A stretch of DNA of 64,000 nucleotides, from IMG/VR virus record IMGVR_UViG_3300046678_000420, positions 1-64,000 of that record. One strand, written 5' to 3'. Shown one piece after another: positions 517-64,000 of this stretch. Made by a program: the position numbers and the translations under genes. This DNA comes from a virus (Duplodnaviria; Caudoviricetes). The notes below the pieces were generated by a model. The model was not told where the DNA came from. It saw only the letters and a program-made list of their open reading frames with translations, and did not search any database. Within the stretch, counting starts at the first letter, position 1, and each line of letters begins with the position of its first letter.

Positions 517-526
517 GCTTTACAGC
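517..526 (+). promoter_or_regulatory. First copy of dispersed GCTTTACAGC-core palindrome (about 40 sites in window)
   Basis: Cores at 517,1072,2181,5290,5841,8335,8932,10603,13766,13889,15434,18640,19208,19950,22319,22872,25002,25765,26974,28562,29987,32306,33773,35308,35801,37682,39141,39198,39645,41386,42860,45383,46326,47379,51032,53528,54126,55812,58975,59098,60661,63440. Confidence 0.8.
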
Positions 527-627
527 TTCCGGCCGGCGCGGGGGTACGGCCGGGGGACAGCGGTTGAGGCCCGGGGTTGAGTGGGGGATTCCCCCGGGTC
601 TCCCGCACACCAACGAGAGGAGGCCCG

Positions 628-1053
628 ATGCCTCGATACGTCGCAACCAAGGTTCCACGCGTTCCGAGGGTGCCGGGCGTCCACCGGGTAGCCCGCGTTC
701 GTCGCGTGCGGCCTCCGGCTCATGTTCACCACCCGCATTCGCCGGGCTCGGTCGTGCATCGGCACCCGCACCAGGGCAACCACAACCCCAGGCCGGGCGC
801 CCACGTTCATCACCATGTCGCTTCCGGTGGTCATCACCCGCACGCGGGCAACCACGGTCACCGGCACATGGCGCCTGGCGGTCATCACCACCACATCGGC
901 GTGCACGAACACCACCATGTCGCTAAGGGCGGGCACCACCACCACAAGGGCGTCCATGAACATCACCACGTGGCGAAGGGTCATCACCACCACCACAAGG
1001 GCTCCCACGGCCACCGGCGCCACCACCACAACCACCGACACCACGGCGTCTAA
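628..1053 (+). CDS. Histidine-rich, Arg-rich basic protein (141 aa), unknown function
   Basis: GGAGG RBS before ATG 628; about one third His; 17-aa repeats; homologue at 45883-46308. Confidence 0.75.
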   Translation: MPRYVATKVPRVPRVPGVHRVARVRRVRPPAHVHHPHSPGSVVHRHPHQGNHNPRPGAHVHHHVASGGHHPHAGNHGHRHMAPGGHHHHIGVHEHHHVAKGGHHHHKGVHEHHHVAKGHHHHHKGSHGHRRHHHNHRHHGV

Positions 1054-1143
1054 GGACTTTGCCGGCGAGGAGCTGTAAAGCGCGCCGCGGTCTCCGTCAC
1101 CCCGGTTTACCGGCTGCCGGAATCACCGAGAGCCGGTTTCCTG

Positions 1144-1177
1144 TAACTCGGTTGACGCACGTGCGTCAAGCGAGTTA
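1144..1177. promoter_or_regulatory. Inverted pair of TAACTC-NN-TTGACGCA operators overlapping a promoter for the HTH gene
   Basis: taactcggttgacgcac-gtgcgtcaagcgagtta; TTGACG -35-like and TAGAT -10-like. Confidence 0.7.
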
Positions 1178-4058: not shown

Positions 4059-5359
4059 GCATATTCACCCGCATTGAGAAGCGCACTGGGGGTCTCGGCT
4101 GGCTCGCTAGTCAGCCCCCGGTGGACTGGGTTCGTAACGCCTTCCTGGCTAACGACCCCGTTTACTCGGGGAAGCAGATCAACGAGCAGACGGCCATGCA
4201 GGTTAGCGCGGTCTATTACTGCGTTGGCCTCATCACGGACGCTATCGCGTCCCTGCCTATCGACGTCTTCAAGGACTATCCGGACGGCACGACCGAGCAC
4301 GTTCGGCCCCCGGCGTGGTTGCGCAAGCCCAATTACCGCATGACCCCGTTCGACTTCTGGCAGCGGGTAGTCATGTCGCTGCTGGTGGCCGGGAACGCCT
4401 ACATCTTCACCCTGCGGAACGGCAAGGGCGACATTGTCGAAGTGTGGCCCATTCACCCGTCGTGGGTGTACCCGTTCCCCGAAGAGGGCACGACCAACGT
4501 TCTGTATGACGTGAACGGCGTCACGATGGATCAGACCGAGATTCTTCATATCCCGGCGCTGTCGATGCCCGGCTACCTCACGGGCCTTTCGCCGCTTGAG
4601 GCGGCCCGGCAGGCTATCGGTATCTCGATGGTGACAGAGGAATTCGGCGCCCGGTTCTTCTCGCAGGGCGCCTACATGTCCGGCATCATTCAGCACCCCG
4701 GCAAGGCGAACCCGGAAGAGGCTAAGCGCCTCAAGGAAGACTTCGTCAAGAAGCACCAGGGCGTAGCCAACAGTCACGCCGTGGGAATTCTGACCGGCGG
4801 CGCTTCCTGGCACCCGATCACCATCACGCCGGAACAAAGCCAGTTCCTTCAGACACGCAACTTCACGAAGGCGGACATCGCCTTGTTCTACCGGGTCCCC
4901 GCTTACCGGGTTGACCCGGCCGTCACGTCCTCTTGGGGTCGTGGCGTCGAAGAGCAGAACTACGCCATGGCGCAAGACACCTTGCACCCGTGGGCGGCAC
5001 GCATCGAGCAGGCCATCTCGACTTTTCTTCTGCCGGGTTTCCAGACCATGCGTTTCAACATGGACGCCCGCCTCAGGGCGAAGCTCTCGGAGCGCTACCA
5101 GGCTCACGCACTGGCCATTCAGAACGGGATGAAGAGCCCCGACGAAGTCCGGGCCGAAGAGGGCATGTCGCCGATCCCGGACGGCAAGGGAGAGCAGTTC
5201 TACCGCCCGGCGAACATCGTCGGTATCGACGAAGACCTGCCCACCGTGGGCGATTGGAAGAAGATCCCGGCCGCGGTGGATGGAGGCGAGCTTTACAGCC
5301 CTCCGCCGGCCCCGGTGCCGGGGCAGGACGGGGGGAATGAACATGAGCCTGCTCCTTGA
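4055..5359 (+). CDS. Portal protein, HK97 family
   Basis: SAVYYCV..IASLP, GNAY, GLSPL, QFLQTR, NEVR-like DEVRAEEGM. Confidence 0.93.
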   Translation: MSIFTRIEKRTGGLGWLASQPPVDWVRNAFLANDPVYSGKQINEQTAMQVSAVYYCVGLITDAIASLPIDVFKDYPDGTTEHVRPPAWLRKPNYRMTPFDFWQRVVMSLLVAGNAYIFTLRNGKGDIVEVWPIHPSWVYPFPEEGTTNVLYDVNGVTMDQTEILHIPALSMPGYLTGLSPLEAARQAIGISMVTEEFGARFFSQGAYMSGIIQHPGKANPEEAKRLKEDFVKKHQGVANSHAVGILTGGASWHPITITPEQSQFLQTRNFTKADIALFYRVPAYRVDPAVTSSWGRGVEEQNYAMAQDTLHPWAARIEQAISTFLLPGFQTMRFNMDARLRAKLSERYQAHALAIQNGMKSPDEVRAEEGMSPIPDGKGEQFYRPANIVGIDEDLPTVGDWKKIPAAVDGGELYSPPPAPVPGQDGGNEHEPAP

Positions 5360-5996
5360 GCGCAGGTCGGTTGAGACACAGTTCGACATCGCCGCCAAGG
5401 GCGACGGGTGGACGTTCACCGGATACGCCGCGAAGTATGGGACGCGGTCTCACGACCTCGGAGGCTTTACGGAAACGGTCCAGGCGGGCGCGTTCACCCG
5501 CGCGCTCGGCGAGGGCCAGGACGTGAGGGCCCTCATCAACCATGACGCGGGTCTCATCTTGGGCCGGACCGCGTCCGGCACGCTGAAGCTGGCGGAGGAC
5601 TCGACCGGGCTGCACTACGAGGTGGACGCGCCAGACACCAGCTACGCGCGGGACCTGGCGGAGTCGATGCAGCGGGGCGACGTCACACAGTCGTCCTTCG
5701 CGTTTCGCGTCCGTGAGGACGACTGGCAGCGGGAGGGCCGCTCGCGGCTGCGGACGCTGATCGACTTAGACCTACTCGACGTTTCGCCGGTCACCTATCC
5801 AGCGTACGAAGACACCGAGTCCGGAGTCACCGCGGCACGTGCTTTACAGCTGGCCGCCGGCCGACTCGGCTGGGATGAGGAGAGGGACGCGCTTTCGGCG
5901 CGTGACCTGGTGGGGGCGTGGAATCCGCTTCCGCCGGAGGACAACGAGATTCTTCGGCTTGCCCTTCGGGCGATCCGGCTTAGGGGCCGTGCCTGA
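5343..5996 (+). CDS. Prohead protease, HK97 (U35) type
   Basis: FTGYAA, GAF, LINHD, LGRT, SSFAF, DVSPVTYPAY. Confidence 0.92.
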   Translation: MSLLLERRSVETQFDIAAKGDGWTFTGYAAKYGTRSHDLGGFTETVQAGAFTRALGEGQDVRALINHDAGLILGRTASGTLKLAEDSTGLHYEVDAPDTSYARDLAESMQRGDVTQSSFAFRVREDDWQREGRSRLRTLIDLDLLDVSPVTYPAYEDTESGVTAARALQLAAGRLGWDEERDALSARDLVGAWNPLPPEDNEILRLALRAIRLRGRA

Positions 5997-8296: not shown

Positions 8297-8715
8297 GCAC
8301 TAACGCATTGCTCGTCAAGGCTGCGATCCAGACCGCTTTACAGCAGTCGGCCGGCCTAGTGGACGTGCCGATCATCTGGGGACCCGACCCGAGACACCAG
8401 CCGCAGCGCTGGATTCTCCTCGGGCAAATCCACTGGGATCACGAACGATGGGCCACGAACAGGTCAAAAGAAGAGACGTTCACTATCGACCTGATCTCAG
8501 AGGTAATGCTTACGGCCTCTACGGCGTTCGACGCCGAAACTCAGGCTGCTGAACTCTCCGGGATCGTCGAGGACATCGTCAAGGCATCTCCCGGTTTCGG
8601 GCTCTCCGGAATCGTCACATCCATCTACAGCCCTGGGCGGCTGCTCTCTTTTCCCGCTGATGACCGCTGGGTTGGCCAAATGCACGGCGAACTCAAGGTC
8701 ACAGCCCGCGACTAA
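8293..8715 (+). CDS. Putative tail terminator/neck protein
   Basis: Position and size (140 aa); homologue at 53486. Confidence 0.55.
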   Translation: MSTNALLVKAAIQTALQQSAGLVDVPIIWGPDPRHQPQRWILLGQIHWDHERWATNRSKEETFTIDLISEVMLTASTAFDAETQAAELSGIVEDIVKASPGFGLSGIVTSIYSPGRLLSFPADDRWVGQMHGELKVTARD

Positions 8716-8729: not shown

Positions 8730-9092
8730 TTGTCTCAGGTCCTCTACACGGGCCCGCTGGCTGGCGTTGTGACGCCGGACGGCACCCAGTTCCCGAAGGG
8801 CGTTCCGATCACGGTCTCTGACGAGCTGGCGGCGTCCCTTCTGCTTCAGACGTTCATCGACGCGACTGCGGCCCCGGCGGCTACGACTGCCACGACTGAC
8901 GCCACCACCACGACGACTACGCCGGCCACGAGCTTTACAGCTCCCGCCGCGGTTCCTGCTCCGGACCCGACTCCGGCCCCTGCTCCGACTCCGGCGCAGG
9001 ACCCGGCCCCGGTCGTCTCCGATCCGACTCCGGCCCCTGCGCCGGACCAGACCGCGACCGTCCTTGCTCCGGTTAGCGGGGTGACTGCGTAA
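8730..9092 (+). CDS. Small protein with Pro/Ala/Thr-rich tail before major tail gene
   Basis: Conserved N-terminus in both copies, variable PAPDPT repeats. Confidence 0.6.
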   Translation: MSQVLYTGPLAGVVTPDGTQFPKGVPITVSDELAASLLLQTFIDATAAPAATTATTDATTTTTTPATSFTAPAAVPAPDPTPAPAPTPAQDPAPVVSDPTPAPAPDQTATVLAPVSGVTA

Positions 9093-10591: not shown

Positions 10592-10665
10592 CACCGCGGT
10601 TCGCTTTACAGCGCCCCGCCGGCCAAGTGTCGGCGGGGCTTCCTACTTCCTGAAGGAGTCCCCCT

Positions 10666-11126: not shown

Positions 11127-14037
11127 GAAGATTCTCCGCGTCATCATCGCGGGTGATGCGCTCGGCGCTGTCGGCGCTCTTGAGTCGCTGTCTCATGGGC
11201 TTGAACGAGCGCATAGTGATGCGGATACTCACGGCGGCGGGATTGTGTCGTCTATGGGCGGTGCCGCTAAGGGTGTCGCTCTTTTCGCTGTAGGCGCGGC
11301 GGCGTCGCTCGGCGCGGTAGCGGCGGAGATCTATCATCTCGGCTCGGGCTACGAGCAGAACTTGAACGCCATTCAGGCTTTCACTCATTCGACTAACGAT
11401 CAGATGAAGTCGCTTGAGAACCAGCTCTATTCGATGTCGCCCAAGTTCGCGCAGATGGGCCAGACCGTCAGTGACGGTTCAGAGGCCCTTTACGAACTGA
11501 CTAAGGCTGGTGCGTCCACTAAGGACGGCATGGCCGAGCTTGTGCCGACTATGGCTCTGGCGAAGGCGACGAACACGGATTACGCCGAGTCGGCCAAGGA
11601 GATGACGCGGGTCCTTGATTCGTTCGGCCTCAAGGCCGACCAGGCGAGCAGCGTTGCGGACATCCTGACCAACGCTACGCACACGTCTACTCAGACGCTT
11701 CAGGACATGGCCGATGGCTTGAAGTACACATCCGTTGCGGCGCACGACTTCGGCATTGACCTTCAGACGACGGCCGCCGTCACTGCTATGTACGCGAACG
11801 CCGGTATTCAAGGCACGCAGGCCGGTACGGCATTCCGCCAGATGCTTCTGAATCTTTCGGCGCCAACGAAGCAGGCTAAGGACGCAATCAAGGCCATTGG
11901 TCTTCAGGCGTTCGATGCGCAGGGCCACATGAGGCCGCTGTCGGATATCTTCCAGCAGTTGCAAGACAAGTTCGGCAAGGGTCTGGACACTCACAGCCTT
12001 GAGAAGATCGCGCCCGACCTTAAGGCGATATTCGGGGCCCGTGGCGTTGAACCTATCATGGCCGCCATCAAGCAAGGCGGCGGCGGCCTCGATCAGTACA
12101 TCAAGCTGATGAACCGGACGGGCGAGGCGTCGGCTATTGCTGAGGCCAAGAGCAAGGGTCTTTCGGGCACTTTCAACATGCTCGGGGCCACGATGGAGTC
12201 CGCCTCGCAGCACCTCTATATGCAGGTCGGTCCGAAGCTGGCGACCTTCCTGGACCCCTTTGTGGAGCGCCTTCCGGGCTATCTGTCGAAGGCGGCAAAG
12301 TACGGGGAAGAGATCTGGACCGCGCTTTCCGATCCAGGTAAGTCCGCGAAGGGGCCGAACGGCAGAAGCGGATTCACGAAGGGCCTTGTCGAGGTCGGCA
12401 AGGTCGTTCACGGTGAAGTGCTTCCGGCCCTCGGCGAGATAGCCAGTTTCGTAAAGGACGACGTCGTTCCGGAAGTCGAGCGGTTCGGAAAGATGTTCGT
12501 CACACAGGTCGTTCCTTTCGTCGCTCGGGTGTCATCCGACATAGGGCGGATGCTGCTCCCGATCCTGCGGGACGTCGGCCGATTCATAAAGGTTGAAATC
12601 CTCCCCATGTTGAAGCAGTGGGGCGAGTTTATCTCAACTGTCGTGATTCCCAAGATGGAGCTTATCTGGACCAAGGTCCGCCCCATCTTGCAAATGCTGA
12701 CCGACTACATCCAAAAGAAGGTCGTTCCACTTCTCTATTGGGCGGCCGAGCAGATGAAGCCGCTGATGAAGGATTTCGAGGCGCTGATCTCGCAGCTTCT
12801 AGATGCGCTAGCCGGGCTCTATGGCTTTTTGGCTCCGGTCATTAAGTGGCTGATCGACAATTTGGGCGGCCCGCTGCTCAGCGCTGTAAAGGGATTCCTT
12901 GGCGGAGTCTTCCAGCTCGTAAAGGGCGTGATCGAATTCGCGCGTGGGCTTCTCGATTTCCTGAAGGGGATTTTTACCGGCGATTGGTCGAAGGTGTGGC
13001 ACGGGCTGTCAGAGATGGCGGCCGGGGTCATGAATGCCCTAGTCGGACTTTTGCGGGCGCTGATCTTCGGCAAGCTCGTTCGGCTATTCATCGAAGGCGG
13101 AAAGGCTTTGATGGATGCCGCAGAGGCGCCGTTTAAGTGGATCGCCGACCGGGTTGGTTCGTTCAGCTCGGACGTGGTTTACGGTTTTACGCGCCTCAAG
13201 CAACTTGCCGGGGCGGTTTGGGATTCCATGTGGGAATCCGTGACCTCGACTTTGTCGGATGCGATGAAGTCCATGGGTGACAATGTCGTTCGGCTCGGCG
13301 CGGATGTCCTCAAGTGGTTCCAGGATTTGCCGGGCGTGCTGGGTCGGCTGCTCGCCGACGCCGGACAGTGGCTCGTTGATACCGGCGTGAAGCTCCTTAC
13401 GGGGCTGAAGAACGGCATCGTGAACGGCGTGAAGGCGGTCTATTCGTGGTTCACCACGGACCTGCCTAACGGCGTGAACTCTGCTCTTTCGAGTATCGGT
13501 TCGTGGCTCGAAAACGCCGGAATCAACATGATGGAAGGCTTCATCAAGGGCGTTGGCGACATGGCCGGGAAGGTGAAGGACTCGGCCGTAAACGCGGTCA
13601 AGGGCGCCTATGACGGCGTGAAGTCCTTCCTTGGTATCAACTCCCCGTCGCGCCTCTATGCCGAGGTCGGCGGCCACACGGGCCAGGGCTACGTCAACGG
13701 CATCGTGGCCAAGACGAAGGCTGTCCATGATGCCGTGGTGGGCATGGTGACTGTGCCGGCCAACCGCTTTACAGCGGCCTTCCGTCAGCAGCAGCAGACC
13801 GCGACCACGGCGGCGGCAACGGCCGCCAGGAACGCCGGTCAACTGTGGGCCTCTACGGGAGTCGGCGGCCCGGTTCAGCCGGCCGGAGGCTTTACAGTGC
13901 CCGTCACTATCAACGTGGCCGGTTCCATCCAGGCTGAGCGGGATTTCGCTCGCACCATGTCTCAGTCGATCCGAGACGAGATCCGCCAGATAGCACGCCG
14001 CAACGGCGGCAAGACAGGCCTTACGGGGGCCTTCTAG
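11113..14037 (+). CDS. Tape measure protein, TP901 family
   Basis: 974 aa helical; LKY..VAA, AGIQGTQAGTAFR, GINSPSR motifs. Confidence 0.93.
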   Translation: MAAGEKILRVIIAGDALGAVGALESLSHGLERAHSDADTHGGGIVSSMGGAAKGVALFAVGAAASLGAVAAEIYHLGSGYEQNLNAIQAFTHSTNDQMKSLENQLYSMSPKFAQMGQTVSDGSEALYELTKAGASTKDGMAELVPTMALAKATNTDYAESAKEMTRVLDSFGLKADQASSVADILTNATHTSTQTLQDMADGLKYTSVAAHDFGIDLQTTAAVTAMYANAGIQGTQAGTAFRQMLLNLSAPTKQAKDAIKAIGLQAFDAQGHMRPLSDIFQQLQDKFGKGLDTHSLEKIAPDLKAIFGARGVEPIMAAIKQGGGGLDQYIKLMNRTGEASAIAEAKSKGLSGTFNMLGATMESASQHLYMQVGPKLATFLDPFVERLPGYLSKAAKYGEEIWTALSDPGKSAKGPNGRSGFTKGLVEVGKVVHGEVLPALGEIASFVKDDVVPEVERFGKMFVTQVVPFVARVSSDIGRMLLPILRDVGRFIKVEILPMLKQWGEFISTVVIPKMELIWTKVRPILQMLTDYIQKKVVPLLYWAAEQMKPLMKDFEALISQLLDALAGLYGFLAPVIKWLIDNLGGPLLSAVKGFLGGVFQLVKGVIEFARGLLDFLKGIFTGDWSKVWHGLSEMAAGVMNALVGLLRALIFGKLVRLFIEGGKALMDAAEAPFKWIADRVGSFSSDVVYGFTRLKQLAGAVWDSMWESVTSTLSDAMKSMGDNVVRLGADVLKWFQDLPGVLGRLLADAGQWLVDTGVKLLTGLKNGIVNGVKAVYSWFTTDLPNGVNSALSSIGSWLENAGINMMEGFIKGVGDMAGKVKDSAVNAVKGAYDGVKSFLGINSPSRLYAEVGGHTGQGYVNGIVAKTKAVHDAVVGMVTVPANRFTAAFRQQQQTATTAAATAARNAGQLWASTGVGGPVQPAGGFTVPVTINVAGSIQAERDFARTMSQSIRDEIRQIARRNGGKTGLTGAF

Positions 14038-19939: not shown

Positions 19940-19986
19940 CCGGCGGAGAGCTGTAAAGCTCCCCGCTGGCCTACCGGAAACGAGTA

Positions 19987-20017
19987 GCCCCCTGCCCTCT
20001 GGCAGGGGGCCTTTTTT
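19987..20017 (+). terminator. Intrinsic terminator ending late operon
   Basis: gccccctgcc-ctct-ggcagggggc followed by T6. Confidence 0.85.
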
Positions 20018-20021: not shown

Positions 20022-20058
20022 TCTCCCTTGACACGTCTTGCGTCAAATGGATTACACT
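20022..20058 (+). promoter_or_regulatory. Promoter for integrase operon with overlapping operator variants
   Basis: TTGACA (20028) .. TACACT (20053); tgcgtcaaatggatta at 20039. Confidence 0.5.
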
Positions 20059-44907: not shown

Positions 44908-44913
44908 CATCTC

Positions 44914-45372: not shown

Positions 45373-45466
45373 CCCGCGGAGCGCTTTACAGCTTCCGGCC
45401 GGCGCGGGGGTACGGCCGGGGGACGGTGGTTGAGGCCGGGGGTTGAGTCTTGCTCCCCCCGGTCTC

Positions 45467-45882: not shown

Positions 45883-46308
45883 ATGCCTCGGTACGTCGCA
45901 ACGAAGGTTCCCCGTGTTCCGCGAGTCCCCGGCGTTCACCGGGTGGCGCGGGTTCGCCGCGTGCGGCCTCCGTCCCATGTTCACTACCCGCATTCGCCGG
46001 GGTCGGTGGTGCATCGGCATCCGCATCAGGGCAACCACAACCCGCGCCCCGGGGCGCATGTTCACCACCATGCCGCCAGCGGCGGCCACCACGCGCACGC
46101 GGGCAACCACGGTCACCGGCACGTCGCATCGGGCGGGCATCACCCGCACAAGGGTGTGCACGAGCATCACCACGTTGTGGCTGGCCGCCATCACCCGCAT
46201 AAGGGTGTTCACGAGCACCACCACGTCCCGAAGGGGCGACACCACCACCACAAGGGGAGCCACGGCCATCGGAGACACCATCACGCGCACCGGCACCACG
46301 GCGTGTAG
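45883..46308 (+). CDS. Histidine-rich protein (B)
   Basis: Homologue of 628-1053, same length. Confidence 0.75.
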   Translation: MPRYVATKVPRVPRVPGVHRVARVRRVRPPSHVHYPHSPGSVVHRHPHQGNHNPRPGAHVHHHAASGGHHAHAGNHGHRHVASGGHHPHKGVHEHHHVVAGRHHPHKGVHEHHHVPKGRHHHHKGSHGHRRHHHAHRHHGV

Positions 46309-46458
46309 AGCCGCGCCGGCCGGACGCTGTAAAGCTCGCGTCTGTACCTTGCTTGACGCATGACGCGTCAAGGGAGTTAGATCATGCCTCAAGACACGGA
46401 AGACCCCGGCGGGTGCTGGACACACCCCCGGGGCTTGGCTTGAGGAGCTGCACTCCAC

Positions 46459-47343: not shown

Positions 47344-47418
47344 CGCCCCTCCCCTCTCCGTCGACCAAACCGCGGGGCGCTTTACAGCGTCCCGCCGGCC
47401 TGATGCGAGGGGGTGTAG

Positions 47419-50550: not shown

Positions 50551-51187
50551 GCGCAGGTCGGTTGAGACCCAGTTCGACATTGCCGCTAAGGGCGATGGGT
50601 GGACGTTCACCGGATACGCCGCGAAGTACGGAACCAGGTCTCACGACCTCGGGGGCTTCAAGGAAACCATTCGGTCGGGCGCGTTCACCCGCGCCCTCGG
50701 TGAGGGCCAAGACGTGAGGGCCCTTATCAACCATGACGCCGGTCTGATCCTGGGGCGTACAGCCTCCGGCACGCTGAAGCTGGCCGAGGACAGCACGGGC
50801 CTTCACTACGAAGTGGACGCGCCAGACACCAGCTATGCCCGTGACCTGGCGGAGTCCATGAAGCGGGGCGACGTCACGCAGTCGTCCTTTGCTTTCCGTG
50901 TCCGTGAGGACGACTGGCAGAAGGAAGGCCGCTCGCGGCTCCGGACCCTCATCGACCTTGACCTACTCGACGTCTCGCCGGTCACGTACCCGGCGTACGA
51001 GGACACAGAGTCAGGGGTCACCGCGGCGCGTGCTTTACAGCTCGCGGCCGGCCGACTGGGTTGGGATGAGGAGAGAGACGCGCTTGCGGCGCGTGACCTG
51101 GTGGGGGCGTGGAATCCGCTCCCACCGGAGGACAACGAAACGCTTCGGCTTGCCCTTCGGGCGATCCGGCTTAGGGGCCGTGCCTGA
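50537..51187 (+). CDS. Prohead protease (B)
   Basis: Homologue of 5343-5996. Confidence 0.92.
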   Translation: MSLLERRSVETQFDIAAKGDGWTFTGYAAKYGTRSHDLGGFKETIRSGAFTRALGEGQDVRALINHDAGLILGRTASGTLKLAEDSTGLHYEVDAPDTSYARDLAESMKRGDVTQSSFAFRVREDDWQKEGRSRLRTLIDLDLLDVSPVTYPAYEDTESGVTAARALQLAAGRLGWDEERDALAARDLVGAWNPLPPEDNETLRLALRAIRLRGRA

Positions 51188-53489: not shown

Positions 53490-53908
53490 GCACTAACGCG
53501 TTGCTCGTCAAGGCTGCCATCCAGACCGCTTTACAGCAGTCGGCCGGCCTGGTGGACGTGCCGATCATCTGGGGGCCCGACCCGAGACACCAGCCTCAGC
53601 GCTGGATTCTCCTCGGGCAAATCCACTGGGATCACGAACGCTGGGCCACGAACAGGTCCAAAGAAGAGACGTTCACTATCGACCTGATCTCAGAGGTAAT
53701 GCTTACTGCCTCTACGGCGTTCGACGCCGAAACTCAGGCCGCTGAACTCTCAGGGATTGTCGAGGACATCGTCAAGGCATCCCCCGGCTTCGGGCTCTCC
53801 GGAGTCGTCACATCCATCTACAGCCCTGGGCGGCTGCTCTCTTTTCCCGCTGATGACCGCTGGGTTGGCCAAATGCACGGCGAACTCAAAGTCACAGCCC
53901 GCGACTAA
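53486..53908 (+). CDS. Putative tail terminator (B)
   Basis: Homologue of 8293-8715. Confidence 0.55.
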   Translation: MSTNALLVKAAIQTALQQSAGLVDVPIIWGPDPRHQPQRWILLGQIHWDHERWATNRSKEETFTIDLISEVMLTASTAFDAETQAAELSGIVEDIVKASPGFGLSGVVTSIYSPGRLLSFPADDRWVGQMHGELKVTARD

Positions 53909-53923: not shown

Positions 53924-54301
53924 TTGTCTCAGGTCCTCTACACGGGCCCGCTGGCTGGCGTCGTGACGCCGGACGGCACCGAGTTTCCGAAGGGCGTTCC
54001 GGTCCTGGTCTCTGACGAGCTGGCGGCGTCGCTTCTGCTTCAGACCTTCGTCGATGCGACTTCGACCCCGGCGGCTACGACCGCTACGACCGACACCACC
54101 ACCACGGCGCCTACGCCGGCCGCGAGCTTTACAGCTCCCGCCGCGGTTCCGGCCCCGGCTCCCGCTCCCGCCCCGGACCCGACTCCGGCGGCTCCCGTTG
54201 CGGACCCGGCTCCGGCTGCGCCTGCTCCCGATCCGACTCCGGCCGCTGCGCCGGACCAGACCGCGACCGTCCTTGCTCCGGTTAGCGGGGTGACCGCGTA
54301 A
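53924..54301 (+). CDS. Pro/Ala/Thr-rich small protein (B)
   Basis: Homologue of 8730-9092. Confidence 0.6.
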   Translation: MSQVLYTGPLAGVVTPDGTEFPKGVPVLVSDELAASLLLQTFVDATSTPAATTATTDTTTTAPTPAASFTAPAAVPAPAPAPAPDPTPAAPVADPAPAAPAPDPTPAAAPDQTATVLAPVSGVTA

Positions 54302-55800: not shown

Positions 55801-55874
55801 TACCGCGGTTCGCTTTACAGCGCCCCGCCGGCCAAGTGTCGGCGGGGCTTCCTACTTTCAAGAGGAGTCCCCCT

Positions 55875-56321: not shown

Positions 56322-59246
56322 GTGGCGGCTGGTGAGAAGATTCTCCGCGTCATCATCGCGGGTGACGCGCTCGGCGCGGTCGGCGCGCTTGAGTCGCTGT
56401 CTCACGGGCTTGAGCGAGCACATAGCGAGGCGGACACTCACGGCGGCGGGATCATGTCGTCTATGGGCGGTGCCGCTAAGGGCATCGGCCTTTTCGCTGT
56501 AGGCGCGGCGGCGTCGCTCGGGGCGGTAGCGGCCGAGATCTACCATCTCGGCTCGGGCTACGAGCAGAACCTAAACGCGATTCAGGCCTTCACTCATTCG
56601 ACTAACGATCAGATGAAGTCGCTTGAGTCTCAGCTCTACTCGCTGTCGCCAAAGTTCGCGCAGATGGGCCAGACCGTTAGTGACGGCTCGCAGGCCCTTT
56701 ACGAGCTGACTAAGGCGGGCGCGTCGTCTAAGGACGGCATGGCGGAACTCGTGCCGACTATGGCTCTGGCTAAGGCGACGAACACGGATTACTCCGAGTC
56801 CGCTAAGGAGATGACGCGGGTCCTTGACTCGTTCGGCCTTAAGGCGTCGGACGCATCGACGGTTGCGGACGTCCTGACGAATGCCACTCACACGAGCACG
56901 CAGACGCTTCAGGACATGGCCGATGGCCTGAAGTACACATCCGTCGCGGCGCATGACTTCGGCATTGACCTTCAGACGACGGCCGCCGTTACTGCCATGT
57001 ACGCGAATGCGGGTATTCAGGGCACGCAGGCCGGTACGGCATTCCGTCAGATGCTTCTGAACCTGTCGGCTCCGACGAAGCAGGCCAAGGACGCAATCAA
57101 GGCCATTGGCCTTCAGGCGTTCGATGCTCAGGGCCACATGAAGCCGCTGTCAGACATCTTCCAGCAGTTGCAAGATAAGTTCGGCAAGGGCCTGGACACC
57201 CATAGCCTTGAGAAGATCGCACCGGACCTTAAGGCGATATTCGGGGCCCGTGGCGTTGAGCCCATCATGGCCGCCATCAAGCAGGGCGGCGGAGGCCTTG
57301 ACCAGTACATCAAGCTGATGAACCGGACGGGCGAGGCGAGCGCGATTGCGCAGGCCAAGAGCAAGGGCCTCTCGGGTACGTTCAACATGCTCAGTGCCAC
57401 CATGGAGTCCGCCGCACAGCACTTCTATATGCAGGTTGGCCCGAAGCTGGCAAACTTCCTGGACCCGTTTGTGGAGGCCCTTCCGGGCTACCTGTCGAAG
57501 GCGGCGAAGTACGGGCAAGAGATCTGGACTGCGCTTTCCGATCCGGGTAAGGCCGCGAAGGGTCCGGATGGCGGAAGCGGTTTCACGAAGGGCCTTGTTG
57601 AGGTCGGCAAGGTCGTGCACGGCGAGGTGCTTCCGGCCCTCGGCGAGATAGGCCGCTTCGTGAAGTCGGACGTTATCCCGGTGGTTGTTCAGTTCGGGAA
57701 GATGTTCGCCACTCAGGTAGTTCCGTTTGTGGCTCGCGTGGCATCCGACATAGGCCGGATGCTGATTCCGATCCTGCGGGATGTCGGCCGATTCGTAAAG
57801 ACTGAAATTGTCCCTGCGCTGAAGCAGTGGGGCGAGTTCGTTTCTACGGTCGTGATTCCGAAGATGGAACTTATCTGGACGAAGGTCCGCCCGATTCTGC
57901 AAATGCTGGCCGACTACATCCAAAAGAAGGTCGTCCCACTTCTTTATTGGGCGTTCGAGCAGATGAAGCCGCTCATGAAGGATTTCGAGGCGCTGATCTC
58001 GCAGGTCCTTGACGCGCTGGCCTCGCTCTACGGATTCCTGGCGCCGGTGATCAAGTGGCTGATTGACACTTTCGGCGGCCCGCTGATCGACGTGGTTAAG
58101 GGATTCCTTCTCGGCGTGTTCCAGATGGTTAAGGGCGTGATCGAGGTAGCGCTCGGACTTCTCGATTTCCTGAAGGGGATTTTCACCGGCGACTGGGGGA
58201 AGATCTGGCACGGACTGGCCGAGATCGTCTCTGGAGTCTTCAACTTCATTGTTGGACTTCTCCGGGCGGTAATCTTCGGCAAGATTGTGAAGATATTCGT
58301 CGAGGGCGGAAAGCTTTTGATGGATGCCATCGAAGCGCCTTTCGAGTGGATTGCCGCACGGGTCGAATCTTTCGGCTCGGATATAGCCTACGGTTTTACG
58401 CGGCTGAAGCAGGTTGCCGGAGCGATTTGGAAGACGCTTTGGGATGACGCGACTTCGCTTCTTTCTAACGCCATGAAGTCTATGAGCGACAATGTCGTGC
58501 GGATCGGTGCGGATATCCTGAAGTGGTTCCAGGATTTGCCGGGCGAACTGGGTCGGCTTCTCGCGAACGCCGGACAGTGGCTTATCGACACCGGTACGAA
58601 GCTGCTTACCGGCCTGAAGAATGGCCTCCTCTCCGGCGTGAAGGCGGTCTATTCGTGGTTCACCTCGGATCTGCCAACCGGGGTGAAGGGCGTCCTTTCG
58701 GACGTTGGTTCGTGGCTCGAAGACTCCGGCCTTCACATGATGGAAGGCTTCATCAAGGGCATAGAGGATATGGCCGGGAAGGTGAAGGATTCGGCCGTGG
58801 GCGTCGTCAAGGGCGCCTATAACGGGGTGAAGTCCTTCCTAGGCATCAACAGCCCTTCGCGCCTGTATACGGAGGTCGGCGGGCACACGGGTCAGGGCTA
58901 CGTCAACGGAATCGCGGCCAAGACACAGGCAGTCCATGACGCAGTGGTGGGCATGGTGACTGTGCCGGCCAACCGCTTTACAGCGGCCTTCCGTCAGCAG
59001 CAGCAGACCGCGACCACGGCGGCGGCAACGGCCGCCAGGAACGCCGGTCAACTGTGGGCCTCTACCGGAGTCGGCGGCCCGGCTCAGCCGGCCGGAGGCT
59101 TTACAGTGCCCGTCACTATCAACGTGGCCGGGAGCATCCAGGCTGAGCGGGATTTCGCTCGCACCATGTCTCAGTCGATCCGAGACGAGATCCGCCAGAT
59201 AGCCCGCCGTAACGGCGGCAAGACAGGCCTTACGGGGGCCTTCTAA
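56322..59246 (+). CDS. Tape measure protein (B)
   Basis: Same 974-aa length as A. Confidence 0.93.
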   Translation: MAAGEKILRVIIAGDALGAVGALESLSHGLERAHSEADTHGGGIMSSMGGAAKGIGLFAVGAAASLGAVAAEIYHLGSGYEQNLNAIQAFTHSTNDQMKSLESQLYSLSPKFAQMGQTVSDGSQALYELTKAGASSKDGMAELVPTMALAKATNTDYSESAKEMTRVLDSFGLKASDASTVADVLTNATHTSTQTLQDMADGLKYTSVAAHDFGIDLQTTAAVTAMYANAGIQGTQAGTAFRQMLLNLSAPTKQAKDAIKAIGLQAFDAQGHMKPLSDIFQQLQDKFGKGLDTHSLEKIAPDLKAIFGARGVEPIMAAIKQGGGGLDQYIKLMNRTGEASAIAQAKSKGLSGTFNMLSATMESAAQHFYMQVGPKLANFLDPFVEALPGYLSKAAKYGQEIWTALSDPGKAAKGPDGGSGFTKGLVEVGKVVHGEVLPALGEIGRFVKSDVIPVVVQFGKMFATQVVPFVARVASDIGRMLIPILRDVGRFVKTEIVPALKQWGEFVSTVVIPKMELIWTKVRPILQMLADYIQKKVVPLLYWAFEQMKPLMKDFEALISQVLDALASLYGFLAPVIKWLIDTFGGPLIDVVKGFLLGVFQMVKGVIEVALGLLDFLKGIFTGDWGKIWHGLAEIVSGVFNFIVGLLRAVIFGKIVKIFVEGGKLLMDAIEAPFEWIAARVESFGSDIAYGFTRLKQVAGAIWKTLWDDATSLLSNAMKSMSDNVVRIGADILKWFQDLPGELGRLLANAGQWLIDTGTKLLTGLKNGLLSGVKAVYSWFTSDLPTGVKGVLSDVGSWLEDSGLHMMEGFIKGIEDMAGKVKDSAVGVVKGAYNGVKSFLGINSPSRLYTEVGGHTGQGYVNGIAAKTQAVHDAVVGMVTVPANRFTAAFRQQQQTATTAAATAARNAGQLWASTGVGGPAQPAGGFTVPVTINVAGSIQAERDFARTMSQSIRDEIRQIARRNGGKTGLTGAF

Positions 59247-59294: not shown

Positions 59295-62200
59295 ATGTCT
59301 ACAACTCTTGGTGTTCACATCGGCTGGGATGCGAACCTTCCGGACCAGTACGTCAAGTACAGCGACGTGTCCGGCTACGTGACGCAGGTGGATACGCAGC
59401 GGGGCCGCTCGACGGAGCTGGACGACATCCAGACCGGTACCGCAACCGTCGCGCTCGACAACTCGGACGGCCGGTTCACTCCGGGCCGCGCCTACGGCAA
59501 GGAACTGCTTCCCGACAACATTCGGACCTCGACCGGTTGGACCAGCCACAGCACGGGGTTCACGGGGGGAACGAATACGACCCTGAGTTCTGCATCCGCG
59601 CACACGCTGTCGTGGACAGCCAGCCTCAAGGCCGTTGTGTCCGCAGGGGTGGCGGGAAACCGCATCGTCCGGACTTCGACTGTCCCAGTGACTCCAGGAC
59701 TCCAGTACCGGGCCTCGGCAATGTCGATGGCGCTCACGGGGACGCTTCAGGCTCAGATGGCAATCCGGTTCTACGACTCTTCCGGGAACGACCTCGGCAA
59801 CGGCACCGACTACGACACGACATGGAAGCAGTACGCGGACGTCGTCCGCGCATCGATGCCGGTGGCCTACCACCGGATGAACGACGCCGGAGGCAACTCC
59901 TGTGCCCCGACTGCGGGGCGGGACCCGATGGTCACGTACAACGTGACGGCTGGCGCCGCTGGCTCCTCGTGGGCCGCTGGCGGCACCGCTTCGGCAGGCG
60001 CGTTCAATGGCACGTCTTCCGTTGCGGAGCCTTGCGGTATCCCCCTGGCGACTGTCGTGAACAACGCCGCGTCGGCCGGGGTATCTTCGGTCGAGTTGTG
60101 GTTCAACACCACCACCCCGGGCGGTCTTCTGGCCGATGCCCCTTCGGCGCTGATGGCTAGCGGTGGCTACAACCCTCCCGTGCAGTACACCATCAGCAGC
60201 GCGGGCACTCCGGTGACCGGCGGCGCGCTGTTCCCTGTGGCCTACATCGGCACGGACGGCTACCTGTACTGCCAGCAAAACGGGTACATGGCGAGCCCGC
60301 CAAAGAGCACATTCCCGGTTAACGACGGCCTTTGGCATCACCTGGTGATTGCTGGCAGTGCTTGTTACCTCGACGGGGTTCAGTTCGGCACGGGGACCGT
60401 GAGCCTTTCGCGCCCAGTCCTCGGCTATGTGGACTTCTCCGCCTCTGCGCCGTCGGGTGCGTGGGTCGCTAAGCCGACTACGGGCTGGTTCAAGGGCAGC
60501 ATGGCCGATGTGGCGCTGTACCGCCACGCGCTGACGCCTCAGACAGTCGCAGACCACTACCGGCATGGCGTGGCAGGGCTCCGTCCCGTGCAGTCCACGG
60601 GCAGCGCGTACCCACTCCCGTGGGGGCTCCTCACCAGTGGGGTCACCGCGCCGGCGAATGCCTTTACAGCGGCCGTTGAAGTCGTCACCGGCAACGCGGG
60701 GACGTTCTACTTCGACTCGTTCTCTCTGCGCACGGTCTCACCGTTCTACGGCCGTATCCGGCCGCGTCGGCGGGTCCGGATCTTCGCCACGACCGGACAG
60801 AACTTGATGCCTCCGGGTATGAACCTCGGCTATCAGACGTACAGCGGCATCCCCGCTGGAGTGGATGACAACGAAACCGGGACGTGGATTCTCGCGAGCG
60901 GGACGAACCTTTCGTTTGACCCGTCGAGCGGCGTGACAACGTATGCCGCTAACTCGTCGTCGGTTTCAGGGCTCTCGCTCTATGGGCCATCAGGCAACGG
61001 GATTTCGGTCCCGTGGATGTTGCTGCCCGGGAACACGTACACCTTCCAATGCCAGGTTGCATGCTGGCGGTTCGCTGCGAACAGCACAGGCGTAACCATC
61101 GGCATCAACACGACCGTGAACTCTCAGCCGGGTTCTTCGACGTACTTCAACGGCTCGGTACCGACTCAGCACATCACCGTGGGCGACGTGTCTTGGAAGA
61201 CGGTTTCGTGGACGTTCACGATCCCCACGACCTACACGCAGCCCGAATTTCTGCTCACGGTCTTCACCAGCGAAACCGTGTCCTCGGGCACGACGTTTGG
61301 ATGGCAAACCGCCCTCAGGAACCTTCAGCTCGTCGATGTGACCAACGGCCAGACCATCCCGGCCTATCAGGCCGGTGACGCCACCATGCCCGTGTTCGTG
61401 GGCGTGGCGGACAAGTGGGAGAGCACCACGGAGTACGACCAGGTTGCGCAGATGCAACTGTCGTGCTCGGACATGATGCGGGCTCTCGGCGAGTCTCAGA
61501 TGTCAAGCGCGCCTCAGTCGCTGGGCTTCCGACCTGACTGGAACTGCATAGGCTCCTGGGACCTCAGCCAGCAACTCGACCTAAACGGCGACTGTGCGAA
61601 TGTCGCCCCCAATCAGCTATTGGGTACGGCTCAGGTCTACTCGGCTAACACCGCGTCCGTGAGCAACATGTTCATTAGCGAGGCTCCGAACGTCAGCCTT
61701 CCGGGGCGCTATCTTCCCCAGGGGAACGGCGGCATCAACTTCCAAACGGCGCTATGCCAGTACTTGCTTTCATTCGGGAAGCTTCCGGCTAAGGGCTCGG
61801 TCGAGTTCTGGTTCCGGCCGTTCAACAACGCGGGGACTAACGACGTCTGGAACGGCGGCGACAACCTGATCTGTGGGTCAGGGCCTTTCTTGAGCATGTA
61901 TATCGGGTCCGGCGGGGTTGGCCAGGTGTCGTGTGGGTGGAACGGCCGTAAGGCCACTTCGACTAACGTCGCGCCGGGTTCCCCGGCGAACCTGATGACC
62001 CGTGGTGGCCACGTGGCTATGGAGGTCATCACCTCGGGCGGTGCGTCGCCCACGGCTTCGGTGCAGGTCTTCTACAACGGGATATCTGTCGTCTCGTCTA
62101 GCGGCGAGTCGTTCGGCCCGGTCGCCGAGCAGTACAACGGCCACTCTTCGGCGTTCTCGATCGGCGGTGACCGAAATTTCACCGACCCGATTTCGGGGGT

Positions 62201-63056
62201 TTCGCTGGCTCAGTTCTGTGGCGAGGTCTATTCACCGGCCATGTACGGCAACACCGGTATGGACTGGGCTACCAGGGTCAACCTGTTCTCTGTCTCGGTT
62301 GGCTTTGCCGTCAACACTCCGGTGAACAACGGCAGCGTCATCAGCGCGACGCAAACCCAACTGCCTTGGATTGTGGCCGCTTCGGGCATGACGTTTCCGC
62401 TCACGGTCGGGTCTGCATCCTCGCCCGCCGATGTGCCGATCTTCAGCAGCGGGACCGGTCTTGACGCGTTCAAGACGCAGGCCGCTCAGACCATGGGCAT
62501 GGTCGTGTTCAATCGGTACGGCGCCTTGTCGATCCAAGACAGTTCGTTCCGGCAGTCCGGGAACGACGTGTATTCGTTCGACTGCACGGGGGCTACCGGG
62601 CCGGATAGCGCAATGCTGTACGTGAATGACATCGACCGGACATGGACTTCCGTTCAGCTTAACGGAGATGACGGATCGACCACGTGGAACAGCTTTGCCG
62701 GGTGGTCTCAGTACGGGTGGCATCAGCAGGCGCAGACCGTTCAGAACTACACAGCCGCGACCGGCGGCTATGCGTGGGGCTTCCTGGCGAACTATCTGCA
62801 ACCGACTGCACGAATCGACTCGGCGACGTTCACCGTGGCCAACAACGCTCTGGCTGCCACGGCGCTGTTGGTGGATATCGGTTCGCACGTTCAGTTCCTC
62901 GACCTCCCCGACAACGCCCCGGGAGACGGCCCCTATGGGGCCTACATGTGTTGGGTGGAATCGGTGAAGGTCACGGCGCAAGCCCAGGGCGGCGTGATCG
63001 TGCCAACGGTTCAGATCACGCTTTCCCCGGACTTCACCTATGTACCGATCATGTAA
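59295..63056 (+). CDS. Large tail tip/receptor-binding protein (B)
   Basis: Homologue of 14086-17826. Confidence 0.8.
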   Translation: MSTTLGVHIGWDANLPDQYVKYSDVSGYVTQVDTQRGRSTELDDIQTGTATVALDNSDGRFTPGRAYGKELLPDNIRTSTGWTSHSTGFTGGTNTTLSSASAHTLSWTASLKAVVSAGVAGNRIVRTSTVPVTPGLQYRASAMSMALTGTLQAQMAIRFYDSSGNDLGNGTDYDTTWKQYADVVRASMPVAYHRMNDAGGNSCAPTAGRDPMVTYNVTAGAAGSSWAAGGTASAGAFNGTSSVAEPCGIPLATVVNNAASAGVSSVELWFNTTTPGGLLADAPSALMASGGYNPPVQYTISSAGTPVTGGALFPVAYIGTDGYLYCQQNGYMASPPKSTFPVNDGLWHHLVIAGSACYLDGVQFGTGTVSLSRPVLGYVDFSASAPSGAWVAKPTTGWFKGSMADVALYRHALTPQTVADHYRHGVAGLRPVQSTGSAYPLPWGLLTSGVTAPANAFTAAVEVVTGNAGTFYFDSFSLRTVSPFYGRIRPRRRVRIFATTGQNLMPPGMNLGYQTYSGIPAGVDDNETGTWILASGTNLSFDPSSGVTTYAANSSSVSGLSLYGPSGNGISVPWMLLPGNTYTFQCQVACWRFAANSTGVTIGINTTVNSQPGSSTYFNGSVPTQHITVGDVSWKTVSWTFTIPTTYTQPEFLLTVFTSETVSSGTTFGWQTALRNLQLVDVTNGQTIPAYQAGDATMPVFVGVADKWESTTEYDQVAQMQLSCSDMMRALGESQMSSAPQSLGFRPDWNCIGSWDLSQQLDLNGDCANVAPNQLLGTAQVYSANTASVSNMFISEAPNVSLPGRYLPQGNGGINFQTALCQYLLSFGKLPAKGSVEFWFRPFNNAGTNDVWNGGDNLICGSGPFLSMYIGSGGVGQVSCGWNGRKATSTNVAPGSPANLMTRGGHVAMEVITSGGASPTASVQVFYNGISVVSSSGESFGPVAEQYNGHSSAFSIGGDRNFTDPISGVSLAQFCGEVYSPAMYGNTGMDWATRVNLFSVSVGFAVNTPVNNGSVISATQTQLPWIVAASGMTFPLTVGSASSPADVPIFSSGTGLDAFKTQAAQTMGMVVFNRYGALSIQDSSFRQSGNDVYSFDCTGATGPDSAMLYVNDIDRTWTSVQLNGDDGSTTWNSFAGWSQYGWHQQAQTVQNYTAATGGYAWGFLANYLQPTARIDSATFTVANNALAATALLVDIGSHVQFLDLPDNAPGDGPYGAYMCWVESVKVTAQAQGGVIVPTVQITLSPDFTYVPIM

Positions 63057-63067
63057 GGGGGGGGGTC

Positions 63068-63379
63068 TTGTCTTACGAGACCGTGATTTCAACGGTGGCA
63101 GTCATCGCGGGTGGCCTGGGCATCAGCTCGGGCGCCCGCGCCCGTGTGAAGGCCGCTGCGCACGTTTCCACCATCGAGGTGTGGCGGGAAGAGGCGGAGG
63201 CCCAGAAGGCCCGTGGTGACCGTCTAGAGGCGGGCATGGCGAGTATGCGCGAGGAGTTCAAGCGCGTTTCTGACGAACTGACCCTAGTCAAGGGCGAACT
63301 TGTCCGCCTCACAAAGATGCTTCGGGCTGTAGCTCCGGAGCTGGTTTCAAACAAGGGGGAGTTTGATGACGACGACTGA
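63068..63379 (+). CDS. Membrane-anchored coiled-coil protein (B)
   Basis: Homologue of 17836-18099 with longer coil. Confidence 0.6.
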   Translation: MSYETVISTVAVIAGGLGISSGARARVKAAAHVSTIEVWREEAEAQKARGDRLEAGMASMREEFKRVSDELTLVKGELVRLTKMLRAVAPELVSNKGEFDDDD

Positions 63380-64000
63380 GACTGTTCTCAACGTGGCGCG
63401 GGGCCAGGTCGGGACCACTGAGAATTCAGCCGGCGACACGCTTTACAGCGACTGGTACGGGCTGCCGTCCGAGTCGTGGTGCGACATGTTCGTGTCCTGG
63501 GTCGGTAGCACTGCCGGTGCTACGGACATCATCGGCAAGTTCGCGTACTGCCCGGCTCACGTGAACTGGTTCAAGGGCCGGGGCCAGTGGGGCTCTGAGC
63601 CCCGAGTCGGGGCCGTGGTGTTCTTCGACTGGAATGGGGACGGGGAGGCCGATCACGTCGGCCTGGTCGAGAAGGTCAACCCGAACGGCTCCATCGGCAC
63701 GATCGAGGGCAACTCCACGAACCCCAGCGGGGGCCGCTTCGGCGTGTTCCGGCACACGGAAAGCGCGCCGTACATCCTGGGCTACGGCTACCCGGCATAT
63801 GACGCTCTGGGCAACGTGACCGCTGGCGGGGCGAAGACCTACACGGTTCGGAAGGGTGACACTCTCTGGGGTATCGCGGCCGTCCTGGGCGTGTCCCTGT
63901 CGGCTCTGCTCGCAGCGAACCCGGGCGAGGCGAAGCACCCGAGCGCGATTCAGCCGGGAGACGTTCTCAAGGTTCCTGCGGCCACGGCCCCGGCAACCGC
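63366..64000 (+). CDS. Endolysin CHAP-LysM (B), truncated by window end
   Basis: Homologue of 18566-19549. Confidence 0.9.
   Translation, partial: MTTTETVLNVARGQVGTTENSAGDTLYSDWYGLPSESWCDMFVSWVGSTAGATDIIGKFAYCPAHVNWFKGRGQWGSEPRVGAVVFFDWNGDGEADHVGLVEKVNPNGSIGTIEGNSTNPSGGRFGVFRHTESAPYILGYGYPAYDALGNVTAGGAKTYTVRKGDTLWGIAAVLGVSLSALLAANPGEAKHPSAIQPGDVLKVPAATAPAT

Follow-up and report, generated by a model that had tools for sequence, protein, structure and literature searches.

Dispersed operator-like arrays are known in actinophages. Cluster A mycobacteriophages carry operator/stoperator arrays with L5 gp71 and Bxb1 gp69 as their repressors (PMC9283540, PMC6550527), repressor-stoperator systems have been described in R4-like Streptomyces phages (PMC10276819) and Cluster CA Rhodococcus phages (PMC5721134), and Cluster O mycobacteriophages contain a 17-bp dyad repeat, TGTTCGGNNNCCGAACA, with 34 copies in Corndog (PMC4351075). 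A reader is known only for the gp71-type repressors, the Cluster O repeat being without one. Here we describe an array of ~32-bp elements, each built around the core GCTKTAMAGC, in a 64,000-nucleotide (nt) stretch of DNA from a virus of the Caudoviricetes (positions 1 to 64,000 of the IMG/VR record IMGVR_UViG_3300046678_000420, referred to hereafter as the window), and propose as its most likely reader a phage-encoded SprT-like protein, of the type of the DNA-dependent metalloproteases SPRTN and Wss1 (PMC5127644, PMC5128726).

A dispersed tripartite element under selection as DNA

Without mismatch, the core GCTKTAMAGC occurs 35 times in the window, where shuffled sequence would yield 0.08, and 49 times in the full 89,947-bp record. 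Seven further window sites combine the same arms with a core carrying one mismatch, which brings the total to 42 and bears out the count of about 40 sites given in an earlier, sequence-only reading of this DNA. GCCGG(C) stands at exactly 5 bp from the core at 30 of the 35 exact window sites and CCGCGG is additionally present at 16 of the 35, two sites being of a promoter type that carries TTGACA. The usual form of the element is GCCGGC-N5-GCTKTAMAGC-N3/5-CCGCGG (~32 bp), and the consensus from 107 distinct oriented sites reads GCCGGC (99-100%)-N5-GCTgTAAAGC-N3-CCGCGG. For comparison we used a set of five genomes, made up of the two related phage genomes contained in the record (unit A, 1-44867; unit B, 44868-89947, record coordinates) and three complete relatives (G001, G002 and G003; 72-85% nucleotide identity to A; 26, 22 and 23 cores, respectively). 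Among 120 sites in these genomes, 95 contain exactly one GCCGGC box and none contains two (0/120); the element is asymmetric, and its earlier description as a 30-bp quasi-palindrome does not hold. CCGCGG lies 3 bp off the other side of the core at 42 of the 95 one-box sites (5 bp off in others), and at 12 of the 120 sites, all of the promoter type, TTGACA replaces an arm.

Approximately 60% of the sites are intergenic and the remainder lie in open reading frames (ORFs), in all three frames; many start 0-2 nt past a stop codon, others up to 36 nt past, and at three sites the core itself supplies the TAA stop. This placement agrees with the earlier observation of sites right after stop codons and inside ORFs in different frames. 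Each phage genome holds about 25 copies, spaced at ~1.8 kb. The GCCGGC side lies upstream relative to transcription at ~13 sites and downstream at ~8, and a two-block (replichore-like) polarity of this side is not robust, because p is ~0.01 in A but 0.17-0.96 in B and G001-G003. The word GCTGTACAGC has zero occurrences in the A lineage, and a literature search with the exact core string returned primer matches only.

Element positions are orthologous across the five genomes, even though these are only 72-88% identical. Identity to A averages 0.97 in intergenic cores and 0.91 in those within ORFs, ~0.81-0.86 in the arms and 0.67-0.78 farther out, with a conservation footprint of ~32 bp. Where copies differ between genomes, they do so by point substitutions, and the clean gain or loss of a 30-bp block was never seen. 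From genome to genome, the core at an orthologous position alternates among TTTACA, TGTAAA and TTTAAA, the arms and the K/M orientation flip, and at 19950 the arms have changed sides between A and B. Late-region sites match in position between the two units except at 5290, where B is without the core, exactly as the sequence-only reading had it. At record positions 50490-50520 (the 3' end of the portal gene in unit B), where this core is lost, there is a hairpin with an 8-bp stem, GGGGGAAC...GTTCCCCC. An IMG/VR search with the core plus one arm retrieved many contigs from rhizosphere metagenomes. The sites are real and under selection as DNA, and we hold with high confidence that they are double-stranded DNA sites read by a protein. 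Of the former proposal of a binding array for a dimeric protein, the array of duplex-DNA protein sites is supported and the readers named alongside it are not.

An SprT-like protein as candidate reader

The array had been presented as one with no identified reader. This needs revising, because the SprT-like protein encoded at 39720-40790, which was not on the list of readers then considered, is now the best candidate; its candidacy follows from co-occurrence with the word across unrelated phages, from a spelling of the core that co-varies with the protein clade, and from the site at its own promoter. We regard this protein, with moderate confidence, as the most likely reader and the elements as its docking or operator sites; its binding to them, and the effect of that binding, are what we infer from these three lines of evidence.

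The SprT-like gene is present in every array-bearing genome, in both word classes (GCT and CGT), and in the A lineage, G006, G012, G011 and G013 the core as spelled in the respective clade is found within the gene's promoter or next to it. Among 70 IMG/VR loci of at least 8 kb with a homologue 32-53% identical (GC content 0.32-0.71), the generalized word xTKTAMAx' is in excess (p<1e-4) at 42, against 0 of 32 controls chosen by TerL similarity (Fisher p = 4e-10). A word lies at most 250 bp upstream of the SprT-like gene at 50 of 75 loci, where 21 would be expected from their own word density. As for cultured phages, GTKTAMAC words number 17 in Arthrobacter phage Maureen, 41 in Streptomyces phage Crosby, 16 in Microbacterium phage Mabodamaca, 5 in Escherichia phage ECO1230-10 and 7 in Burkholderia phage Mica, against 0-1 for a reversed-pattern control in these genomes; in three of these phages (Maureen, Mabodamaca and ECO1230-10) the SprT-like gene is preceded by a copy at a distance of 20-50 nt.

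The spelling of the word tracks the SprT-like clade, being GCTKTAMAGC in the A lineage and G006 and CGTKTAMACG in a sister clade (G011-G015). G006, whose capsid protein is 62-63% identical to that of A, contains CTKTAMAG 17 times, where 0.8 would be expected, and lacks GC arms; the sister-clade genomes (TerL 63-66% identical) have 14, 15, 9, 7 and 4 copies of CGTKTAMACG, whereas the reversed control gives 0, and these copies are likewise armless and lie in promoters or next to them. In L165-168, whose SprT-like proteins are closest to that of the A lineage (51-53% identity), the word is GCTGTACAGC with the same GCT...AGC flanks, and the spelling in L170 is CGTGTACACG. To judge from the sequences, such switching of the core class looks like what a co-evolving pair of protein and site would produce. 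Compared with the xTKTAMAx' words GTTTAAAC, RTTTAMAC and CGTGTAAACG, the A-lineage word has the same TKTAMA centre, the same scatter over genes and gaps, and shares the copy upstream of the SprT-like gene, but its flanks are spelled C...G (GCT...AGC) and not G...C; relative to phages with those words, the A lineage adds the GCCGGC/CCGCGG boxes and its SprT-like protein is ~140 amino acids (aa) longer. What is new in the present array is the C...G spelling together with the arms of restriction-type palindromes.

In the SprT-like protein itself, residues H86, E87, H90 and H99 (HExxH plus the downstream His) are invariant in 32 sequences, and a zinc ribbon is retained (KQxTRxxK...C..C...RTT.K...C..G). 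The PF10263 profile scores 21.7 bits against a cut-off of 25.6; PHROG 6361 matches at 2.4e-36, and the cultured-phage homologues are annotated as SprT-like protease. An AlphaFold model (predicted local distance difference test score, pLDDT, 85) has human SPRTN 6MDW as its top match in the PDB (6MDW and 6MDX at probabilities of 1.00 and 0.99, with weak E-values of 4e-3 and 3e-2), followed by abylysin 4JIU. On this model the protein is assigned an SprT-domain fold, that is, a Spartan-type zinc metalloprotease domain. In the A lineage the protein carries a C-terminal extension of ~140 aa. A single zinc-ribbon specificity residue (W versus N/M) was considered and fails to hold across all loci.

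In the library searched, no paper connects an SprT-like protein with a DNA word. For the Arthrobacter phages of Cluster AZ, a preprint reports that an SprT-like protease is conserved and that no immunity repressor could be identified; it also reports that Liebe, in which the SprT-like protein is truncated at the N-terminus, forms clear plaques, whereas those of the near-identical Maureen are turbid, and it does not describe the word (10.1101/2025.05.26.655371). We take this plaque contrast as a published hint of a role for the SprT-like protein.

Core-bearing promoters and a second, operator-like palindrome

At the promoters at 39637 and 41376 the core sits within the 18-bp spacer between the -35 box and a TANNNT-like -10, in all five genomes, which agrees with the previous assignment of the sites at 39645 and 41386 to promoter spacers beside -35 boxes; the promoters are of the TTGACA type. 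Promoter-type sites are without GC arms and number two per genome, with extra core-in-spacer promoters in G002 and G003, and the promoter class with CTTGACRC as its -35 recurs in A-lineage genomes. A conserved leader, GCCAGCAAGACAC, follows core-bearing promoters at 39669-39681, ~41420-41432 and ~43805-43816 (minus strand); at the same place the leader is TGTCAGCGAGA in the sister clade and TTGTCAGCAAGGA in G006.

A second, operator-like palindrome, CTTGACGC-N4-GCGTCAAG, overlaps other promoters, one at 1170, one at 20027, which lies upstream of the integrase, and one at 38795-38820. The overlap is with the -35 (1150-1190; 20027-20050; 38795-38820, a leftward promoter at 38.8 kb), and the palindrome is also found in B at 46350-46375. 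The core differs from this sequence, such that there are two operator types, and the distinction formerly drawn between the element and a repressor-type operator stands.

A docking model and the points against it

In the mechanism that we propose, GCTKTAMAGC would be how the A lineage spells xTKTAMAx', a recognition word that accompanies SprT-like genes across many unrelated phages, and the SprT-like protein would dock on the ~32-bp duplex elements. With the core placed in the -35/-10 spacer at two promoters per genome, one of them the SprT-like gene's own, docked protein should shut the promoter, resulting in autoregulation and early-gene control. The other ~20 copies, mostly past stop codons and some intragenic, would spread the protein over the whole chromosome at intervals of ~1.8 kb, where it might act as a roadblock or silencer in the manner of stoperators, as a DNA-tethered protease, or as both. 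A bolder version, to which we give a low probability, casts the protein as a sequence-addressed, DNA-tethered protease that is parked about every 2 kb, degrades host proteins landing nearby, and underlies immunity or lysogeny both here and in Cluster AZ-like phages. The GCCGGC/CCGCGG arms could in that case be bait, landing pads that draw a host DNA-binding protein to the protease; the weakness of the bait idea is that other copies of these palindromes have already been purged, so that it is hard to see what such a trap would protect.

Several considerations weigh against docking by the SprT-like protein. To our knowledge, sequence specificity is not known for SprT/Spartan proteases. At 28 of the 70 SprT-like loci there is no excess of the word at p<1e-4, some using other spellings and others showing nothing, and the related phages in these co-occurrence counts are non-independent samples. 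The association could stem from a tightly linked gene, or the SprT-like gene could be a mere regulated target. The docking model leaves both the GCCGGC/CCGCGG arms and the stop-codon abutment unexplained, and an ordinary repressor needs no invariant catalytic residues, which makes the action after docking unclear.

Positions of the elements

Elements of the window and associated features are given below in window coordinates; strand is undirected (.) for all entries except the promoter-type sites and the SprT-like gene.

506-537: element, core 517-526; CCGCGG-N3-core-N5-GCCGG, directly past the TerS stop; conserved in five genomes
1061-1092: element, core 1072; GCCGGC left, CCGCGG right
2170-2201: element, core 2181; flanked by the HTH_36 gene and TerL; a GTCGAC box precedes it by 19 bp
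5279-5310: element, core 5290; portal gene 3' end; core lost in unit B
5830-5861: element, core 5841; in protease gene; a core at about the matching place in the distant relative G006
8324-8355: element, core 8335; in ORF
8921-8952: element, core 8932; in ORF; GCCGGC left, CCGCGG at N5
10592-10623: element, core 10603; directly past stop codon
13755-13786: element, core 13766; in tape-measure gene; 57 bp nearly invariant in five genomes
13878-13909: degenerate element, one-mismatch core 13889; GCCGGC arm
15423-15454: degenerate element, one-mismatch core 15434; GCCGGC arm
18629-18660: element, core 18640; in ORF
19197-19228: degenerate element, one-mismatch core 19208; both arms
19939-19970: element, core 19950; directly past stop; arms swapped between A and B; followed by a canonical terminator at 19986-20017
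22308-22339: element, core 22319; serine integrase gene 3' end
22861-22892: element, core 22872; 2 nt past stop
24991-25022: degenerate element, one-mismatch core 25002
25754-25785: element, core 25765; in ORF
26963-26994: core without arms, core 26974; in RusA-like gene
28551-28582: degenerate element, one-mismatch core 28562; the B and G003 copies have no mismatch
29976-30007: element, core 29987; abuts stop of sigma-like gene
32295-32326: element, core 32306, which is the TAA stop of ORF 32073-32312
33762-33793: element, core 33773, which is the TAA stop of 33363-33779
35297-35328: element, core 35308; between the two Lsr2 genes
35790-35821: element, core 35801; past the second Lsr2 gene; strong hairpin; unit A only
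37671-37702: element, core 37682; inside clamp-like gene (minus strand)
39130-39161: element, core 39141; within an 800-bp non-coding region, paired with the next element at a distance of 57 bp
39187-39218: element, core 39198; GTCGAC box upstream; second of the pair
39638-39668, +: promoter-type site, TTGACA-c-core(39645)-N7-CATCGT; 18-bp spacer; drives the SprT-like gene
39720-40790, +: SprT-like zinc protease gene; zinc ribbon and C-terminal extension; proposed reader
41377-41409, +: promoter-type site, TTGACG-cac-core(41386)-...; drives 41453-42139
42849-42880: core 42860; ACACGCGC-type arms; between two minus-strand genes
45372-45403: unit B counterpart of 517, core 45383
46315-46346: unit B counterpart of 1072, core 46326
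47368-47399: unit B counterpart of 2181, core 47379
51021-51052: unit B counterpart of 5841, core 51032
53517-53548: unit B counterpart of 8335, core 53528
54115-54146: unit B counterpart of 8932, core 54126
55801-55832: unit B counterpart of 10603, core 55812
58964-58995: unit B counterpart of 13766, core 58975
59087-59118: unit B degenerate element, one-mismatch core 59098
60650-60681: unit B degenerate element, one-mismatch core 60661
63429-63460: unit B counterpart of 18640, core 63440

The arms and palindrome avoidance

Many palindromes of 6 bp are strongly avoided in these genomes (observed/expected: CTCGAG 1/58, CTGCAG 1/23, GTCGAC 13/77, GGATCC 2/24, GAGCTC 7/60). The two arm sequences follow this pattern outside the elements: over four genomes CCGCGG is observed 47 times against 160 expected, with 45 of the 47 inside elements, and GCCGGC 107 times against 264 expected, with 74 of the 107 inside elements. 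These lineage-specific arms present a second puzzle, that of restriction-type palindromes tolerated only within the elements. They are confined to the A lineage, where the ~140-aa SprT extension and the HTH_36 protein also occur; either of these could read the arms, a single lineage having no statistical power to distinguish them.

Other candidate readers and alternative explanations

The readers previously put forward (the helix-turn-helix (HTH) protein at 1251, the Lsr2 pair and the sigma-like protein) proved unlikely to read the core. Neither G006 nor the sister clade, both of which keep arrays, has the HTH_36/zinc-ribbon protein encoded at 1251. The RGR domain of Lsr2 does not differ between the two word classes, Lsr2 is unable to read the class-specific flanks, and unit A contains 93 other A/T runs of at least 5 (27 of at least 6). 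Three phages with a homologue of the sigma-like protein, Bxz2, Ibantik and P318, gave no SprT-like match in the search that found the cultured-phage homologues and show no word excess (2, 1 and 8 words, where the reversed-pattern control gives 2, 5 and 11). The WhiJ-like HTH_31/DUF5753 protein, which the sister clade lacks, was set aside as well, as was, in the role of repressor, the conserved 204-aa protein at 37249-37863 (-). The latter is probably sliding-clamp-like, because its nearest ESM Atlas clusters carry the DNA pol III beta domain (in 13-38% of members); its AlphaFold2 model is poor (pLDDT 39). The element with core 37682 lies inside this gene. A PDB sequence search for three candidate readers yielded nothing useful, and no repressor-like family was found among ~60 proteins with Pfam and PHROGs, a direct comparison with gp71 not being made. 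Among 50,697 phage records there were no near relatives of the DNA, of the HTH protein at 23296-23763 or of the 204-aa protein.

Were the SprT-like gene a target or a linked passenger, the operators and stoperators would be read by a different phage-encoded regulator, an unrecognised immunity repressor. The promoter-spacer position would suit any repressor, several small uncharacterised proteins are encoded at ~38.1-38.8 and 42.5-43.8 kb, and the HTH protein at 23296-23763 occurs in the A lineage, G006 and G012; however, the recognition helix of that protein differs in A, G001 and G006 despite the same core, the WhiJ-like and clamp-like proteins have the drawbacks described above, the HTH_36 protein is not in G006 or G012, and no other gene was found to track the word across unrelated phages (GC 0.33-0.71). 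We consider such a regulator unlikely, if deserving of some weight. A host protein (transcription factor, nucleoid protein or restriction-modification component) whose signal the phage has copied appears decidedly improbable: the arms are indeed restriction-type palindromes, but across 185,579 representative species genomes, among which the host was not identified, the extended motif gave 10 single, chance-level matches in unrelated taxa and no multi-copy occurrence, with neither host nor prophage found. Moreover, the word family is present in phages of both Actinobacteria and Proteobacteria, always beside the phage's own gene, and its spelling differs between closely related phages of the same metagenomes.

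Two further explanations were considered. Action of the elements as RNA or single-stranded DNA hairpins (terminators, stabilisers of mRNA resembling repetitive extragenic palindromic elements, priming or nicking signals) draws on the partial complementarity of the consensus arms, the abutment to stop codons at many sites, the hairpin that unit B retains at 5290 without the core, and strong folds at five unit-A sites (2181, 5841, 19950, 32306 and 35801); only ~5 of 26 unit-A sites are strong hairpins, among them the clean stems reported before at 2181, 19950 and 35801. Yet mean folding energy is -15.0 kcal/mol against -14.3 (standard deviation 4.5) for flank-shuffled sequences, mirror complementarity of the arms is near the permutation or column-composition level, arm position 8 holds a conserved G.G/C.C mismatch, with a complementarity of 0.10 where 0.38 would be expected, and native arm pairs are no stabler than orthologue chimeras (Wilcoxon p = 0.47), with no compensatory evolution. 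Loop and arm orientation flips at orthologous sites, arms are missing at promoter-type sites and in all relatives outside the A lineage, canonical T-tract terminators are separate (as at 19986-20017, directly past the element at 19950), and there is no Rfam match. We therefore find extruded hairpins, as suggested by the sequence-only reading, very improbable. Its other suggestion, of recombination boundary sequences (linkers or small mobile palindromes shaping the genome mosaic), is extremely improbable: 1072, 29987, 33773 and 41386 do adjoin ends of alignable segments, but random gene boundaries lie just as near to homology breakpoints as the elements do (p = 0.24-0.87), gain and loss proceed by point substitution rather than by 30-bp insertion or deletion, and positions are conserved between the diverged genomes.

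The record joins two phage genomes

The 89,947-bp record consists of two ~45-kb phage genomes, 86-90% identical, in a head-to-tail (cos-to-cos) join. We describe units A and B as virion-order genomes and not integrated prophages, because each spans TerS (first) to an HNH endonuclease (last) with a large serine integrase mid-genome; the two prophages of the earlier account are related phage genomes, neither of them integrated. Read depth in public runs is 13-17 over the A part and 68-99 over the B part in X3, and 0-4 and 30-50, respectively, in X4, a difference between runs that points to two co-occurring strains fused by assembly; the record looks like an assembly join of two strains rather than tandem prophages. 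The public runs holding the phage are of rhizosphere DNA only, with no RNA runs listed.

Several further features of the genomes were observed. A His-rich 141-aa ORF without a family match lies between TerS and the HTH_36 gene in both units (628-1053 and 45883-46308), with elements on both sides. A metallophosphoesterase gene followed by the sigma-K-like gene (28620-29975) recurs as a pair in the Cluster A mycobacteriophage Bxz2 and Thermobifida phage P318. Genes for a DUF6879 protein and then the WhiJ-like HTH_31/DUF5753 regulator (30117-31687) are present in the A lineage and G006 and not in the sister clade; such a pair is typically actinobacterial and chromosomal. An AT-rich segment with many A/T runs of at least 6 (36053-37238, between the Lsr2 genes and the clamp-like gene) is found in unit A only. 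The 800-bp non-coding region at 38830-39640 has three 12-bp iteron-like repeats (TTTCGGGGCCG-like, 38951-39000), an AT-rich patch (39361-39375) and the tandem element pair, and may be a replication origin. In the distant relative G006 a tRNA-Leu(CAG) gene (L070 861-940) adjoins the TerS end.

Comparison with known systems

The array resembles Cluster A stoperators in having tens of copies of one short site across a ~45-50-kb temperate actinophage genome, in its enrichment in short intergenic gaps beside stop codons with the same site in early promoters, and in a spelling that varies between related lineages. It differs from them in that stoperators are asymmetric 13-bp sites, whereas the present element is tripartite, 32 bp long and has a near-palindromic core, the orientation of which is not tied to transcription (polarity domains being weakly significant). 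A gp71-type HTH repressor was not detected in family scans, the candidate reader being instead a zinc protease with a zinc ribbon. The Cluster O repeat is likewise dispersed and dyad-symmetric, in genes and between them, is not tied to rearrangements, and is predicted to bind a dimeric protein (PMC4351075); it has another sequence and is without restriction-type arms or a proposed reader.

With SPRTN and Wss1 the candidate reader shares the HExxH...H zinc site, a predicted fold matching 6MDW and what appears to be a small C-terminal DNA-binding module, and its phage homologue, the SprT-like protease gp46 of Cluster AZ, is implicated in lysogeny (10.1101/2025.05.26.655371). SPRTN, in contrast, binds DNA without sequence preference and removes DNA-protein crosslinks, and sequence-specific docking on a dispersed word is not described for the SPRTN/Wss1 family. 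The candidate reader offered by this array is concrete and testable, and it is an unexpected one, namely a Spartan-like zinc protease bearing a zinc ribbon. If true, the proposal would explain the widespread 'SprT-like protease' gene of Arthrobacter, Microbacterium, Streptomyces and Proteobacteria phages, would bear on the unidentified immunity system of Cluster AZ phages, and would make this the first sequence-specific protease of the Spartan family.

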